This document shows positions 5,049 to 13,583 of a stretch of 24,753 bases of DNA, piece after piece. Each line of letters starts with the position of its first letter. The stretch's first letter is position 1. The position numbers were made by a program, and so were the translations under genes. The stretch is from a virus (lineage: Duplodnaviria > Heunggongvirae > Uroviricota > Caudoviricetes): IMG/VR virus record IMGVR_UViG_2648501392_000012; one strand, given 5' to 3'. Below the pieces are notes generated by a model. That model did not search any database. It saw nothing but the letters and a program-made list of their open reading frames with translations, and was not told the origin of the DNA.

Positions 5049-5348
5049 AAAAATTCCTTAATACTGATAACTTGGCGCACTATACACACGTTCCTGAAGA
5101 AAGCTATAGTTTTTTGATGGGGTTGAAGATGGCTGGATGTCTAAAATAAACATTGCTTCATATGTTCAACTATGCGTTAATGATTGCGTCGGTTTGAAGA
5201 ACAGACGATATACGAAGTAGTTTACTAAAGCAGTTCTCATTTCAGGTGTTATTCACTTATTCCTTCTTTGAGTCTCTCCAATTAAGTACGAAGTCGTTTC
5301 TGTTATGCAAACCATTTATGCCGAAAGGCTCAAGTTAAGGAATGTAGA

Positions 5349-5564
5349 ATGTCAAATAAAATGACTGGTTTAGTAAAATGGTTTAACGCTGATAAAGGTT
5401 TCGGCTTTATTTCTCCTGTTGATGGTAGTAAAGATGTGTTTGTGCATTTTTCTGCGATTCAGAATGATAATTATCGAACCTTATTTGAAGGTCAAAAGGT
5501 TACCTTCTCTATAGAGAGTGGTGCTAAAGGTCCTGCAGCAGCAAATGTCATCATTACTGATTAA
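5349..5564 (+). CDS. cspB: Cold-shock protein CspB (71 aa)
   Basis: Protein [38 protein letters not shown]... with canonical RNP1/RNP2 motifs; divergent from cspF. Confidence 0.9.
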
Positions 5565-5846
5565 AATTCATCGCTCGTCTGTATACGATAACGAAGAAGG
5601 CTGATGCCTGAGTAGAGATACGGACAGAGTAGTGAATATTGGATCTCTTTAATAAAAAGTAAGGAGGTCCAATACATGAAACAATGGCTAGCATATTTGG
5701 CAAAATCTTAATCAGGAAAAGTATGCTAACCATTGTGGTGAAGTGCAGGTTTGCTGCATGAATAGTTTTACAGCAGAAGCTAACTGCTGGCATGGCAAAA
5801 CAAAGTGCGTAAGTGGATGACTCCCACAAAAAGCACCACAATCTCA

Positions 5847-7873: not shown

Positions 7874-8234
7874 GGTAATATTAAATCGGAACATTTACAT
7901 CGCGGAATGTAAAATTTGAATAAAAAGGACTCTTCCATGAGCCAAAATTCCTGAAATCTTAAGGGTAAGATAAAAGGTCTTAATCAGAATGACACGTTTT
8001 ATTAATAAATAAAGCTATTCTTTCATTGCTGTGTTTTTCTTTACAAAAGTAATCCTTGCTATGGGTGGTTAATCATGCGTTAATGGTGTTCTGGTTTGTT
8101 ACAAATTTATCTGAAGCAGTCATTGTTATAATTTTATTATTTGTACCTCTTGAGATTTCCTTGTTGGTTTTTCTCTCTGATATTTTTTTCGGACCATTCT
8201 GCCCAAGGGCTAATTTCTTCAAAAGGTAATAATT

Positions 8235-8447
8235 ATGTCTAATAAAATGACTGGTTTAGTGAAATGGTTTAACCCTGAAAAAGGTTTTGGTTTCATCACG
8301 CCGAAAGATGGCAGCAAAGATGTGTTTGTCCATTTCTCAGCAATTCAGAGCAACGATTTCAAAACATTAACTGAGAATCAGGAAGTTGAATTTGGTATTG
8401 AGAACGGACCTAAAGGTCCTGCCGCTGTTCATGTAGTGGCGCTTTGA
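8235..8447 (+). CDS. cspI: Cold-shock protein CspI (70 aa)
   Basis: [70 protein letters not shown]. Confidence 0.9.
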
Positions 8448-8535
8448 GGTAGACAATATTACAAACCATATTCACTTTAGATGCCCGTGTTGTCATGGTT
8501 CCCAGTATAGAACATCATCTTTTGATGTTTCTGAC

Positions 8536-8949: not shown

Positions 8950-9120
8950 TTTGATGCTATTGCATTGATAATTCAGGAAAATTCTCTTTGTCTGTTTGTG
9001 TAAAATTTAGACTATCGTATGTTGATTATTGCGATGTTTCATCTTATCTTTTACACGTTTGCACCATATAATCGACTTACTGTGTAACTGGAAAGTCATA
9101 ACAGACTAAAAGAGGAAATG

Positions 9121-9293
9121 ATGAATATTGAAGACTTAAAAACAAAAGCAGAAGCAGATATTTCTGAATATATAACAAAAAAATTATTGAACTTAAGAAA
9201 AAGACCGGGAAAGAAGTTACCAGTATTCAGTTTACCGCACGGGAAAAAATGACGGGTCTTGAAAGCTATGATGTCAAGATTAATTTAATCTGA
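9121..9293 (+). pseudogene. gnsB: gnsB/gnsA-like gene split by an apparent 1-nt frameshift
   Basis: Frame 1: MNIEDLKTKAEADISEYITKKLLNLRKRPGKK... stops at 9250..9252; a second frame continues ...KEVTSIQFTAREKMTGLESYDVKINLI* to 9293, matching the Gns C-terminus (FTAREKMTGLESYDVKI); the shift falls in an A-rich run near 9200..9215. Confidence 0.5.
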
Positions 9294-9444
9294 TGTATTC
9301 AATAATAAAATTTATCCATAAACCTCGTTTTTACGGGGTTTTGTTATATTTGAATGGTTCCGAATATCTAAATCACAATTGTTGATGGTTTTTATTAAAC
9401 CAATGCAGTCCGGCTCAGGAGTGAGAGAAGCCGGACGTTATGGT

Positions 9445-9891
9445 TTAGCGTGGTAAGATCTGTGTAGTTTTCTGGATGCTTTCAGTAATTTTCTGGATGC
9501 TTTCAGTAAATAGTAATGAGTTATCAAAGGCATAGTAATATCTTTGGTGTTCCTGGATATTTGTAACCCATCGGAAAACTCCTGCTTTAGCAAGATTTTC
9601 CCTGTATTGTTGAAATGTGATTTCTTTTGATTTCAACTTATTATAGGAGGTCTCTATAAGATGTTTGTTTCTGGAGAATTTAACATTTACAACCTTTTTG
9701 AGTCCTTTTACTAACACTATGTTGTCGTTTTCTAACACAATGTGAATATTATCTGTGGCTAAATAGTAAATATAAAGTGAGACATTGTGACGTTTTAGCT
9801 CAGAATAAAATAATTCACAGTTTAAATCTTTACGCACTTGATCGAATATTTCTTTAAAAATGGCAGCCTGAGCCATTGGTAAACCTTCCAT
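9445..9891 (-). CDS. ydfO: YdfO-like DUF1398 protein (148 aa) with an internal 7-codon tandem duplication near the C-terminus
   Basis: Protein ...[44 protein letters not shown]; assigned from recalled YdfO sequence and Qin gene order. Confidence 0.7.
9468..9509. repeat. Perfect 21-bp tandem duplication (TTTTCTGGATGCTTTCAGTAA x2) inside the ydfO-like gene
   Basis: Counted directly: 9468..9488 is identical to 9489..9509; in-frame, giving [14 protein letters not shown]. Confidence 0.9.
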
Positions 9892-10176
9892 GTGATACGA
9901 TGGCGCGTAGTTAGCATTATCGTGTTTATTGTTTCAATCTGGTCTGACCTCTTTGTGTTTTGTTGATGATTTATGTCAAATATTAAGCCTGTTTTTAATG
10001 AATAGTGTTGATTGCGTAACAAAATTGAGCCTTGCTGGCATCCAGGAGGGATATGCAACCGACAGATGTATGTAAGGTCGATGTACTCAAACTTTCATAC
10101 TTTTCCTCTTTTATGCAGTAAGATTTGAAGTAATATTTTAACCGCTAGATGACGAGCAAACGCATGGAGCGACAAA

Positions 10177-10744: not shown

Positions 10745-10900
10745 TGCCACGGGGCGGGAGCGTCGCGGAAAAAGGCTAGTTTTTGCATTTCCATGGCGGC
10801 GGCAGCATGTTTGGTAATTTATTGATAATTAAAAGTTATTTCTCTTTTTACCTGTACAATATTTTTTTCTCCCTGTCATTAGACCAGTTTGCAATTAATT
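10745..10900 (+). other. Putative cos packaging-site region (cosN-like GC-rich core plus T-rich TTTCTC elements) upstream of the small terminase gene
   Basis: GGGGCGGGAGCGTCGCGG at 10751..10768 resembles lambda cosN (GGGCGGCGACCTCGCGGG); downstream TTATTTCTCTTTTT and TTTTTTTCTCCCTGTC resemble cosB R elements; position matches lambda organisation. Confidence 0.3.
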
Positions 10901-10947
10901 GAAATATATAAATAAACATGATTTTCACCTGCCAGATGGAGTTGCTT

Positions 10948-11475
10948 ATGTCAAATGTGAGCGGGATCGGTGATGCTTATTACTGGAGTGTTTTTAAAAT
11001 CGCTGAGGCCTTTGGGCTTCACCGGGACACAGTAAAAAAACGGCTCCTCGCGGCCAACACTCCTGTGGCTGCGACTATCAGGGGGAACCCCGTTTACGCC
11101 CTGCAGCATGTCGGGCCAGCCCTGTTTAGTGTGAAGCATGAGGCAGCAGACTCTGTTCATGATCCATCCCGTATGGAGCCGAAAGAGAGAAAGGACTGGT
11201 ACCAATCTGAAAATGAAAGGATCAAGCTGGAAAAGGAGCAGCGAAAACTCATCCCCGTTGATGAAGTAGTCATCGTCTATTCGTCCATGAGAAAGGCTGT
11301 CGTCCAGGTTCTGGAGACAATTCCGGATGTTCTTGAACGCGATTGCGCCCTGACTCCTCAGGCCGTCGGCGTTGTGCAGCAGGCCATTGATGACCTGCGA
11401 TACACTCTTCAGGAAAAATCCTACGAGGCTTGTGCTGCTGAATTAATTCCTGATGAGGAAGGAGAGAGTCTCTAG
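10948..11475 (+). CDS. Terminase small subunit (Nu1-like DNA-packaging protein)
   Basis: About 175-aa acidic protein immediately upstream of the gpA-type large terminase; N-terminal HTH-like region (YWSVFKIAEAFGLHRDTVKKRL); GGAG 7 nt before ATG 10948. Confidence 0.65.
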   Translation: MSNVSGIGDAYYWSVFKIAEAFGLHRDTVKKRLLAANTPVAATIRGNPVYALQHVGPALFSVKHEAADSVHDPSRMEPKERKDWYQSENERIKLEKEQRKLIPVDEVVIVYSSMRKAVVQVLETIPDVLERDCALTPQAVGVVQQAIDDLRYTLQEKSYEACAAELIPDEEGESL

Positions 11476-11483
11476 GAGGAATA

Positions 11484-13583
11484 ATGGGTTTTTCATCAGC
11501 CCGAAATTTGGGAAGGGACATATCGGCAGGATTTTCCCCACCACGTCGCATGCCGATTTCGGAGGCTGTTAAAAAATTCATGCGTGTTCCCAAGGGGGCT
11601 GGTAACTCGGTGCCATGGGATCCTGAACTGACACCCTACATCATTGAGCCCATGAACTGCCTGGCATCGCGTGAATACGATGCGGTGATTTTTGTTGGTC
11701 CTGCGCGAACAGGGAAGACCATTGGTCTGATCGATGGATGGATTGTCTATACCATCGTTTGCGATCCTTCGGACATGCTCGTTGTGCAGATGACCGAAGA
11801 TAAGGCCCGCGAGCATTCTAAAAAGCGCCTCGACAGAACGTTCAGAAGCAGTGCGGCGGTAAAGAAAAGAATGAGTCCACGTCGTAACGACAATAATGTC
11901 CATGATAAGACGTTCAGGGATGGCTCGTTCCTTAAAATTGGTTGGCCCTCGGTCAACATTATGTCGTCGTCGGATTACCGGTTTGTCGCCTTAACCGATT
12001 ACGACCGTTTTCCGGAGAATATCGACAGCGAGGGTGATGGTTTCTCCCTGGCCTCAAAACGTACCACCACATTTATGTCCGCCGGGATGACTCTGGTGGA
12101 GAGCTCGCCGGGACGTGACATCTGCGACAGCAAATGGCGACGTAAGTCGCCTCATGAAGCGCCACCGACGACTGGTATTCTTTCCCTTTACAATCGTGGT
12201 GACCGCCGCCGCTGGTACTGGTCATGTCCGCACTGCGGTGAATATTTTCAGCCAGCCATGGATGCCATGACCGGCTACCGTAATGAACCGGATCCCTTTA
12301 AAGCCAGTGAGGCGGCGTATCTACTTTGCCCGCACTGCAGCGGCATTATCACTGCGGAGAAAAAGCGTGAGCTCAATAGTGCAGGAGTCTGGTTGCGTGA
12401 AGGTCAGGTCATTGATCGTAACGGCAACGTTTCCGGTGAACCGCGCCGCTCCCGTATCGCCAGTTTCTGGATGGAAGGGCCAGCTGCTGCGTATCAGACC
12501 TGGGCGCAACTGGTTTACAAATTACTGACTGCAGAACAGGAGTATGAAGCGACAGGAAGCGAAGAAACACTCAGGGCGGTTATCAACACCGACTGGGGAT
12601 TGCCTTATCTTCCTCGTGCCAGCATGGAGCAACGAAAAAGTGAACTGCTTGAGCAGCGGGCAGAGCCAGTTCCTTCCCGCAGTGTGCCGGATGGCGTTAA
12701 TTTCCTTGTGGCGACAGTGGATGTGCAGGCGGGACGTCATCGCCGTTTTGTGGTTCAGGTAACGGGCTATGGCAGTCGTGGCGAACGCTGGATTATTGAT
12801 CGTTACAACATCACGCAGTCATTGCGCAGTGACTGCGACGGGGAGAGCCAGCGAATTGATCCGGCCAGCTATCCGGAAGACTGGGATGTCCTGCTGACGG
12901 ATGTTTTTCATAAAAGCTGGCCGCTGGCCTCCGATCCTTCTCAACAAATGCGACTGATGGCAATGGCGGTGGACTCCGGCGGTGAAGACGGGGTCACTGA
13001 TAATGCCTATAAATTCTGGCGTCGTTGCCGTCGTGATGGCCTTGGTAAACGTATTTACCTGTTTAAGGGTGACAGCATCCGGCGCGCAAAACTGATCAGC
13101 CGTACATTCCCTGATAACACCGGACGAACGGGCCGCCGGGCGCAGGCCGCAGGTGATGTGCCGCTCTGGCTTCTTCAGACGGATGCCCTGAAAGACCGGG
13201 TGAATAACGCGTTATGGCGTGACTCGCCAGGTCCAGGCTATGTGCATTTCCCTGACTGGCTGGGGAGCTGGTTTTACGACGAACTGACGTATGAAGAGCG
13301 GAGCAGTGACGGGAAATGGAGTAAGCCGGGTCGCGGTGCCAACGAAGCTTTTGACCTGATGGTGTATGCCGAGGCTCTGGTCATTCTGCATGGATACGAA
13401 AAGATCCGCTGGCCGGATGCACCGGAATGGGCGAGCCGGGAGACCTGGCTGGAGTGTGTCCAGGACAGTACCGAACCGTCATCCTCACCGGAACCGGTAT
13501 CCACGCCTGTTAAAAAACAAAAACGGAAGAAAACAGTAACTGACGATGTTAACCCCTGGCTGACTTCCGGAGGATGGTTATGA
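11484..13583 (+). CDS. Terminase large subunit, lambda gpA family
   Basis: 699-aa ORF; Walker A motif VGPARTGKT; AGGAGG ribosome-binding site; CxxC...CxxC segment (CPHCGEYF...CPHCSG) as in gpA. Confidence 0.9.
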   Translation: MGFSSARNLGRDISAGFSPPRRMPISEAVKKFMRVPKGAGNSVPWDPELTPYIIEPMNCLASREYDAVIFVGPARTGKTIGLIDGWIVYTIVCDPSDMLVVQMTEDKAREHSKKRLDRTFRSSAAVKKRMSPRRNDNNVHDKTFRDGSFLKIGWPSVNIMSSSDYRFVALTDYDRFPENIDSEGDGFSLASKRTTTFMSAGMTLVESSPGRDICDSKWRRKSPHEAPPTTGILSLYNRGDRRRWYWSCPHCGEYFQPAMDAMTGYRNEPDPFKASEAAYLLCPHCSGIITAEKKRELNSAGVWLREGQVIDRNGNVSGEPRRSRIASFWMEGPAAAYQTWAQLVYKLLTAEQEYEATGSEETLRAVINTDWGLPYLPRASMEQRKSELLEQRAEPVPSRSVPDGVNFLVATVDVQAGRHRRFVVQVTGYGSRGERWIIDRYNITQSLRSDCDGESQRIDPASYPEDWDVLLTDVFHKSWPLASDPSQQMRLMAMAVDSGGEDGVTDNAYKFWRRCRRDGLGKRIYLFKGDSIRRAKLISRTFPDNTGRTGRRAQAAGDVPLWLLQTDALKDRVNNALWRDSPGPGYVHFPDWLGSWFYDELTYEERSSDGKWSKPGRGANEAFDLMVYAEALVILHGYEKIRWPDAPEWASRETWLECVQDSTEPSSSPEPVSTPVKKQKRKKTVTDDVNPWLTSGGWL

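Follow-up and report, generated by a model that had tools for sequence, protein, structure and literature searches.

An In-Frame 21-bp Tandem Repeat of Variable Copy Number in a Prophage DUF1398 Gene of Escherichia coli

A 21-bp segment near the 3′-end of a DUF1398 (YdfO/YbcV-like) gene occurs twice in tandem in the 24,753-nt stretch of viral DNA analyzed here (IMG/VR record IMGVR_UViG_2648501392_000012; hereafter, the window). Very probably, the site is a heritable in-frame 21-bp VNTR: a one-copy ancestor would have undergone a single duplication, and the two-copy allele would then have spread, had a flank exchanged and been expanded to three copies, with a change in the protein tail that is most likely neutral. 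The main evidence is the distribution of one-, two- and three-copy alleles among public genomes and their linkage to flanking haplotypes.

The DUF1398 Gene and its Prophage

The gene lies on the minus strand at positions 9445–9876 and encodes 143 amino acids from an ATG at 9876, a product identical to RefSeq WP_000035576.1. An in-frame upstream ATG at 9891 would yield 148 amino acids (ORF 9445–9891). A GGAAGG motif is placed 7 nt before the ATG at 9876 and no such motif precedes the one at 9891, so that the 143-aa start is the more likely of the two; in other genomes, RefSeq annotates the identical allele from this second ATG (WP_000035576.1, 143 aa). The product matches Pfam PF07166 (DUF1398) over the complete profile (positions 1–119 of 119; 147.7 bits against a cut-off of 22, E = 2e-43), and phmmer aligns its residues 1–138 with YdfO (PDB 2HH8; E = 8e-67), the only one of its relatives whose structure has been solved. 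Sequence and fold alike place the gene in the DUF1398/YdfO family.

The gene order is cspI-ymcF-ynfR-ynfN-gnsB, followed by the DUF1398 gene on the opposite strand, a ynfO-like gene, DUF1441 and terminase. Farther upstream are relBE, hokD, an antiterminator gene, cspF/cspB and a lysis cassette, and downstream are portal, capsid and tail genes. These surroundings are those of a Qin-type lambdoid prophage, in which the DUF1398 gene is an accessory gene between the lysis/cold-shock module and the terminase genes. None of the complete genomes matched the whole window at 100%. The prophage of O157 strain 493/89 is collinear with the window only from 510 to 21953; it differs between the ynfO-like gene and the terminase (10791–11580), and identity downstream falls to 95.8%, differences typical of lambdoid module mosaicism. 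In other genomes, the two-copy allele adjoins at least three different DUF1441/terminase variants, and also IS66 insertions.

Several other features of this region were observed. First, gnsB (9118–9290, plus strand) is frameshifted in the window, where a run of seven A at about 9176–9182 stands against eight in 20 of the 20 other aligned loci; the shift truncates GnsB after 44 amino acids (MMNIEDL...HGKK), and either the source strain truly has a pseudogene here or the homopolymer was misread in sequencing. Second, the DUF1398 gene contains another 21-bp tandem repeat at 9702–9743 (minus strand), which is imperfect (Tandem Repeats Finder, 2.0 copies, 85% match) and maps to two adjacent β-strands (E43-48 and E53-56) in the AlphaFold2 model; it could stem from an early duplication within the gene or be a chance effect of a β-hairpin. 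Third, ATCTGGTCTGACCTCTT at 9937–9953 (plus strand) is exactly the PdhR box sequence given for the ybcV/ybcW intergenic region of K-12 (PMC7660256). This predicted box is located between the DUF1398 gene, whose first ATG is 46 nt downstream of it, and the divergent ynfO-like gene, and suggests that the DUF1398 gene may be under pyruvate-sensing control by the host here, too. Fourth, the cspA thermoregulator RNA (RF01766) has two full-length matches on the plus strand, at 5188–5580 and 8090–8474 (158.8 and 115.7 bits), which presumably serve cspB and cspI, the cold-shock genes of the prophage, as 5′ leaders; no RNA family in the Rfam scan overlaps the 21-bp repeat. The promoter/terminator scan returned only the gnsB terminator at 9320–9341, and promoter-like sites were no commoner than in shuffled sequences.

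The family goes by conflicting names in databases, namely ‘head protein’ (PHROG 413, and lambda in RefSeq), ‘putative envelope protein’, ‘YbcV’ and ‘DUF1398’. The product does match phrog_413 (‘head protein’) with an E-value of 4.5e-80. The labels ‘head protein’ and ‘putative envelope protein’ are nevertheless unsupported, as the gene runs opposite to the flanking genes and its fold has no match to a structural protein. A Foldseek search of the PDB gave no match besides 2HH8 at E ≤ 0.001, and the defence models of PADLOC-DB gave weak partial matches only (REase_II, E = 2.3e-4, 18.6 bits; Csx23, E = 6.8e-3). No function has been assigned to any member of the DUF1398 family (PMC4077768; PMC7660256; PMC8711792). 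As for expression, ydfO is induced by ionic liquid and its overexpression is reported to raise resistance to oxidative stress (PMC4077768), ydfO is differentially expressed upon induction of DicC (PMC11430063), and ybcV mRNA is down 10-fold in a pdhR mutant (PMC7660256). A literature search found no mention of the repeat DNA or its peptide. Protein searches also return dozens of ENA contigs of about 3,500 bp (proteins P0032–P0067 and others), which encode YdfO variants of 180–210 amino acids, 75–90% identical, with scrambled, frameshifted tails. These contigs seem to stem from error-prone assembly of a single cloned ydfO plasmid and not to reflect natural diversity, and they inflate the apparent diversity of the family in such searches.

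Structure of the Repeat

By direct string comparison, positions 9468–9488 and 9489–9509 of the window are identical without a single mismatch, both being TTTTCTGGATGCTTTCAGTAA. Tandem Repeats Finder reports an array at 9464–9509 with a period of 21, 2.2 copies and a score of 85, in which the extra 0.2 copy is a partial match (GTAG/GTAA) on the left side. Given the base composition of the window, the expected number of perfect 21-bp tandem duplications in 24.7 kb is about 6.5e-9, so that the duplication is not a product of chance. It is in frame and adds seven residues near the 3′-end of the minus-strand ORF 9445–9891. The copy nearer the start codon (9489–9509, minus strand) comes first in the protein as TESIQKI, its TES ending the last β-strand, LLFTES; the copy nearer the stop codon (9468–9488, minus strand; coding-strand unit TTACTGAAAGCATCCAGAAAA, identical to 9489–9509) comes second as TESIQKT. 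The coding strand across the array runs from TTA CTA TTT into ACT GAA AGC, ATC CAG AAA, passes through ATT into the same six codons again, and continues with ACT ACA CAG ATC, TTA CCA CGC and the stop codon TAA. In the 148-aa ORF the copies start at residues 129 and 136, which correspond to residues 124 and 131 of the 143-aa, RefSeq-style protein. The boundaries of the unit are unambiguous: the left flank ends in G where the unit has A, and the right flank starts with A where the unit has T. Since the flanking bases continue the unit on neither side, junctional microhomology is absent.

The earlier note on this DNA had described a perfect in-frame duplication close to the C-terminus of a ydfO-like gene, and its coordinates, sequence and reading are all borne out by string identity and by the PF07166 and 2HH8 matches.

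Copy Number among Strains

A 551-bp two-copy query spanning the repeat was compared with 5,426 complete E. coli genomes, in which the two-copy allele was found in 34 records at ≥99% identity (33 of them individually tabulated). Besides soil and water isolates, these strains include some from humans, cattle, pigs and a rat, and their countries of origin are Germany, India, Japan, Australia, Switzerland, China and the USA. The next-best matches covered 530 bp at 96.2% identity, or exactly 530/551, and hence are the identical sequence less one unit, the alignment gap of the one-copy alleles being placed at 9468–9488. The corresponding one-copy query matched about 399 records at ≥99%. Two copies are thus carried by about 8–9% of this allele family (about 8% of complete-genome records), and exact matches in IMG/VR comprised four contigs with at least two copies and 40 with one. 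Exact protein look-up placed the two-copy protein on at least 999 contigs and the one-copy protein on at least 1,000, counts that are lower bounds and are not used as a frequency ratio.

A three-copy protein was first built synthetically, and public data proved to contain it as WP_126690689.1, from E. coli (UniRef n = 12). Its DNA was found at two loci, in draft genomes, with three perfect units and flanks identical to the two-copy haplotype. A synthetic three-copy DNA query never gave a full-length match as first hit in the 5,426 complete genomes, a search in which BLAST splits the alignments and identity bands are uninformative. The one-, two- and three-copy alleles, otherwise identical, encode 136 (WP_000035577.1), 143 (WP_000035576.1) and 150 (WP_126690689.1) amino acids, and copy number therefore accounts for the three lengths in which RefSeq holds this one DUF1398 protein. 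Within the best 120 protein clusters, the duplication occurs in two, both of this allele family, and YbcV-type and K-12-YdfO-type proteins lack it. Variation in length between strains, which the earlier note had only expected, is thus a fact.

The same records bear on whether the second copy is an artefact of assembly or sequencing, absent from the real genome, as that note had considered. For the allele this reading is effectively refuted and keeps next to no probability: the two copies recur in 33–34 independently assembled complete genomes, in the four IMG/VR contigs, on at least 999 contigs at the protein level and in RefSeq WP_000035576.1, and a 42-bp repeat is much shorter than a sequencing read and does not confuse assemblers. 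No evidence in its favour was found beyond the private gnsB variant of the window (A7 versus A8), which shows that small errors in the source sequence are possible. The second copy is accordingly real.

Haplotypes and the Origin of the Duplication

Copy number was compared with flanking haplotype in 77 sequences, that is, 76 loci and the window, at four marker SNPs on the left of the repeat (7918, 8682, 8963 and 9133) and three on the right (9913, 10024 and 10119). The typed set is a convenience sample of top BLAST hits and IMG/VR contigs, and the SNPs are few. Haplotypes are given below as left and right states separated by a hyphen. One-copy alleles carry either AATA on the left with AAT or TAT on the right, or AGCG (AGTG in one case) with TGA. 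Alleles with two or three copies carry GGCG (22 fully typed, and two partially typed as ?GCG) with TGA or AAT. The distinguishing G at 7918, 1.5 kb away from the repeat, occurs in every typed allele with at least two copies and in no typed one-copy allele, and among the 77 sequences no one-copy allele is GGCG. The remaining left markers (8682 G, 8963 C and 9133 G, the last within gnsB) are common to all alleles with two or more copies and to the one-copy AGCG haplotype. On the right, the window has 9913 A, 10024 A and 10119 T; GGCG-AAT, its own form, is the majority form of the two-copy allele, and GGCG-TGA is that of ST865/ST866 (100% match), NCTC9064, 14EC007 and EA2. The AATA-type flank is in the majority among one-copy alleles. 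Across the complete genomes, no two-copy allele stands on a T/A-type flank, and the flank combination of the majority two-copy form is found in no one-copy allele.

This distribution of markers points to one old origin of the duplication, which would have spread by descent. Frequent, recurrent change in copy number was not seen, as two or more copies are confined to GGCG and neither revertants nor independent gains appeared. One-copy alleles on the C/G flank had been candidates for revertants by contraction and were rejected, since they are typed AGCG, not GGCG, and resemble the ancestor. Rare contraction revertants or independent duplications could occur in draft genomes outside the typed sample. 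The linkage to haplotype and the absence of observed revertants nevertheless imply that the rate of copy-number change is low on the timescale of E. coli diversification.

It is accordingly very unlikely that the site is a mutational hot spot, at which replication slippage would have given rise to the duplication repeatedly, and recently, in strains independent of one another. The markers 7918 G and GCG are present in each of the 22 fully typed alleles that have at least two copies, one-copy GGCG alleles are wanting, the common AATA-type flank bears two copies in none of the complete genomes, the other types among the best 120 protein clusters (YbcV and K-12 YdfO) are without the duplication, and the one-copy sequence offers no microhomology that would favour repeated slippage. 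These points outweigh the three-copy allele, which does show that a two-copy array can change further, and the expectation that an allele with perfect repeats is less stable than a one-copy allele.

The mixed flanks raise another possibility, that a misaligned, unequal crossover joined two different prophage alleles and produced the duplication itself, in which case the flanks of two lineages in the majority two-copy allele would be accounted for. Among the first 72 loci typed, every allele with at least two copies was indeed a GGCG-AAT chimera and no one-copy allele was chimeric, and the complete genomes likewise hold no chimeric one-copy allele. The non-chimeric GGCG-TGA two-copy alleles of ST865/ST866, NCTC9064, 14EC007 and EA2, however, essentially refute this origin, and it was rejected as highly improbable. 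Their existence implies that the duplication took place on an unrecombined descendant of AGCG-TGA and that the exchange of the flank was a separate, later event. As both right flanks occur on two-copy alleles, the breakpoint of this recombination lies between 9133 and 9913 (about 780 bp) and the event followed the duplication. The mosaic protein P0002 (WP_415809251.1) combines the two-copy C-terminus with 10 substitutions between residues 4 and 84, its loci being GGCG, and represents a further recombination inside the gene.

Under the favoured reading of a single origin, the history would be as follows. The ancestral state would be one copy on AGCG-TGA. A blunt 21-bp tandem duplication would have occurred once, in the AGCG-TGA sub-lineage marked by 7918 G, and the two-copy allele would have spread through many E. 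coli lineages via descent, prophage transfer or recombination. The right flank would have been exchanged from TGA to AAT, giving the form of the window, recombination within the gene would have generated the mosaic protein, and at least one expansion to three perfect copies would have occurred on the GGCG-AAT background. Replication slippage is the usual explanation for tandem duplications of this kind. The founding junction has no microhomology, and a signature of slippage is thus missing there. A pair of perfect copies, once formed, can gain or lose units through slipped-strand mispairing or unequal sister-strand exchange. The expansion to three copies would presumably have proceeded by slipped-strand mispairing or unequal exchange between the perfect repeats, and instability between such repeats is expected to yield just what is observed, three-copy alleles on the haplotype of the two-copy allele.

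Age of the Duplication

From the perfect identity of the two copies, the earlier note had concluded that the duplication is recent. At the level of strains this conclusion is not supported, since the two-copy allele is common by descent to strains from many hosts and several continents, and it is further weakened by the confinement to one linked haplotype, by at least two later recombination events and by the later expansion to three copies. One- and two-copy alleles show no difference over the 530 shared bases of the gene region, and the flanking haplotypes differ at four sites in about 1.55 kb. At this flank divergence, two 21-bp copies should differ at only about 0.05 sites, so that their perfect identity is nearly uninformative on age: the duplication may be young or as old as the split of the haplotypes. 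The pattern of shared haplotypes shows that the duplication predates the dispersal of this prophage sub-lineage; only against the divergence among ybcV, ydfO and the lambda gene can it be called ‘recent’. At low divergence, to argue from a perfect repeat to a recent event is therefore unsafe, as this duplication would predate at least two recombinations and a further expansion.

Effect on the Protein

AlphaFold2 models of the two- and one-copy proteins were built from a 30-sequence alignment. The two-copy model has a mean pLDDT of 86.8, its last strand being LLFTES at 121–126, and pLDDT is <50 at residues 130–143; the one-copy model has a mean pLDDT of 89.7, identical secondary structure to residue 126 and pLDDT <50 at 130–136. 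In Foldseek, the two-copy model matches 2HH8 with E = 2.8e-18, TM-scores of 0.81/0.90 and an rmsd of 1.7 Å over 126 columns at 77% identity, the 2HH8 model compared comprising 127 residues of a 149-residue construct. In the alignment, distant homologues end at about residue 127–134, and several of them stop 4–8 residues past the conserved TE motif. The first copy would thus still complete the last β-strand, LLFTES, and the second would lengthen a low-confidence C-terminal tail from 7 to 14 residues. DSSP assigns a helix to residues 128–138 of the two-copy model, but with pLDDT <50 there it is not to be trusted, and the tail is probably flexible. The earlier note had thought of a predicted helix that the duplication might alter; as modelled, the extra residues fall not within a confident helix but in the tail of pLDDT <50 past the last confident β-strand.

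Judging from these models, the polymorphism in copy number is most likely neutral or nearly so. As 21 bp are seven codons, the one-, two- and three-copy alleles all keep the reading frame and the stop codon, unlike a phase-variation switch. The duplicated segment includes the conserved TE-x-I motif at the edge of the domain, and an effect on whatever the tail contacts is therefore possible. The length variants could also be under selection, in that a tail of 7, 14 or 21 residues would tune what the DUF1398 protein does or binds, and the two-copy allele would have spread as advantageous. Compatible with such selection are the conserved motif within the duplicated block, the regulation of relatives (ydfO by ionic liquid, with an oxidative-stress phenotype, PMC4077768; ybcV by pdhR, PMC7660256), and the fact that the two-copy allele makes up about 8–9% of the allele family in diverse hosts and survived recombination of both flanks. 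We nonetheless regard it as unlikely. Distant homologues lack the region, of pLDDT <50, to which the extra residues belong, no function is on record for any family member (PMC4077768; PMC7660256; PMC8711792), and the locus is not one of phase variation, every copy number being in frame. Hitch-hiking or drift of a prophage lineage would, moreover, be expected to give just such a frequency (about 8%) and such tight linkage to one haplotype. There is a slim chance that the tail is a functional interaction element whose TESIQK(I/T) heptads, in a tail of 7, 14 or 21 residues, tune activity, and that the allele reached its frequency of about 8% by selection and not by hitch-hiking. If this were true, the site would act as a ‘length dial’, slow and in frame, for a prophage accessory protein with stress-responsive relatives. 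The variants hint that the C-terminal tail of DUF1398 proteins tolerates 7–14 extra residues, and they say nothing new on the role of these proteins.

Comparison with Known Systems

The repeat is an ordinary, small in-frame VNTR, and all three protein lengths are already in RefSeq. With one, two or three 21-bp units distinguishable by PCR sizing, it can serve to mark a single sub-lineage of Qin-type lambdoid prophages, and its practical value is modest. The E. coli that carry the sub-lineage so marked are diverse, commensal as well as pathogenic, and among them are a sorbitol-fermenting O157 strain, ETEC and EPEC.

Among the relatives of the gene, YdfO of the K-12 Qin prophage (2HH8, solved by NMR as Northeast Structural Genomics target ER251) has the same Pfam family and fold, and according to annotations its gene occupies the same genomic position beside gnsB and a ynfO-like gene. 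It contains a single TESIQK block, in contrast to the two found here, and its DNA is about 85% identical to this gene. YbcV of DLP12 and an ORF near the right end of lambda (J02459.1/NC_001416.1, 47061–47527) share about 92% DNA identity over most of the gene, which places the present allele nearer to ybcV than to ydfO. They also share the DUF1398 domain and the location between lysis genes and cos/terminase, and the PdhR box sequence upstream of K-12 ybcV is kept exactly at 9937–9953 of the window (PMC7660256). Both have one repeat unit, with the tail TESIQNTTQIFPR, and a DNA search of phage records returned no two-copy repeat.

As a class, the site is comparable to the MLVA-type VNTR loci of E. 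coli, at which head-to-tail repeats vary in copy number between strains and in-gene units that are multiples of three keep the frame. The present repeat is likewise head to tail, variable in copy number and in frame. It differs in that only one to three copies were observed and that it appears to change slowly, its copy number tracking the flanking haplotype, and it is therefore a lineage marker rather than a fast clock.
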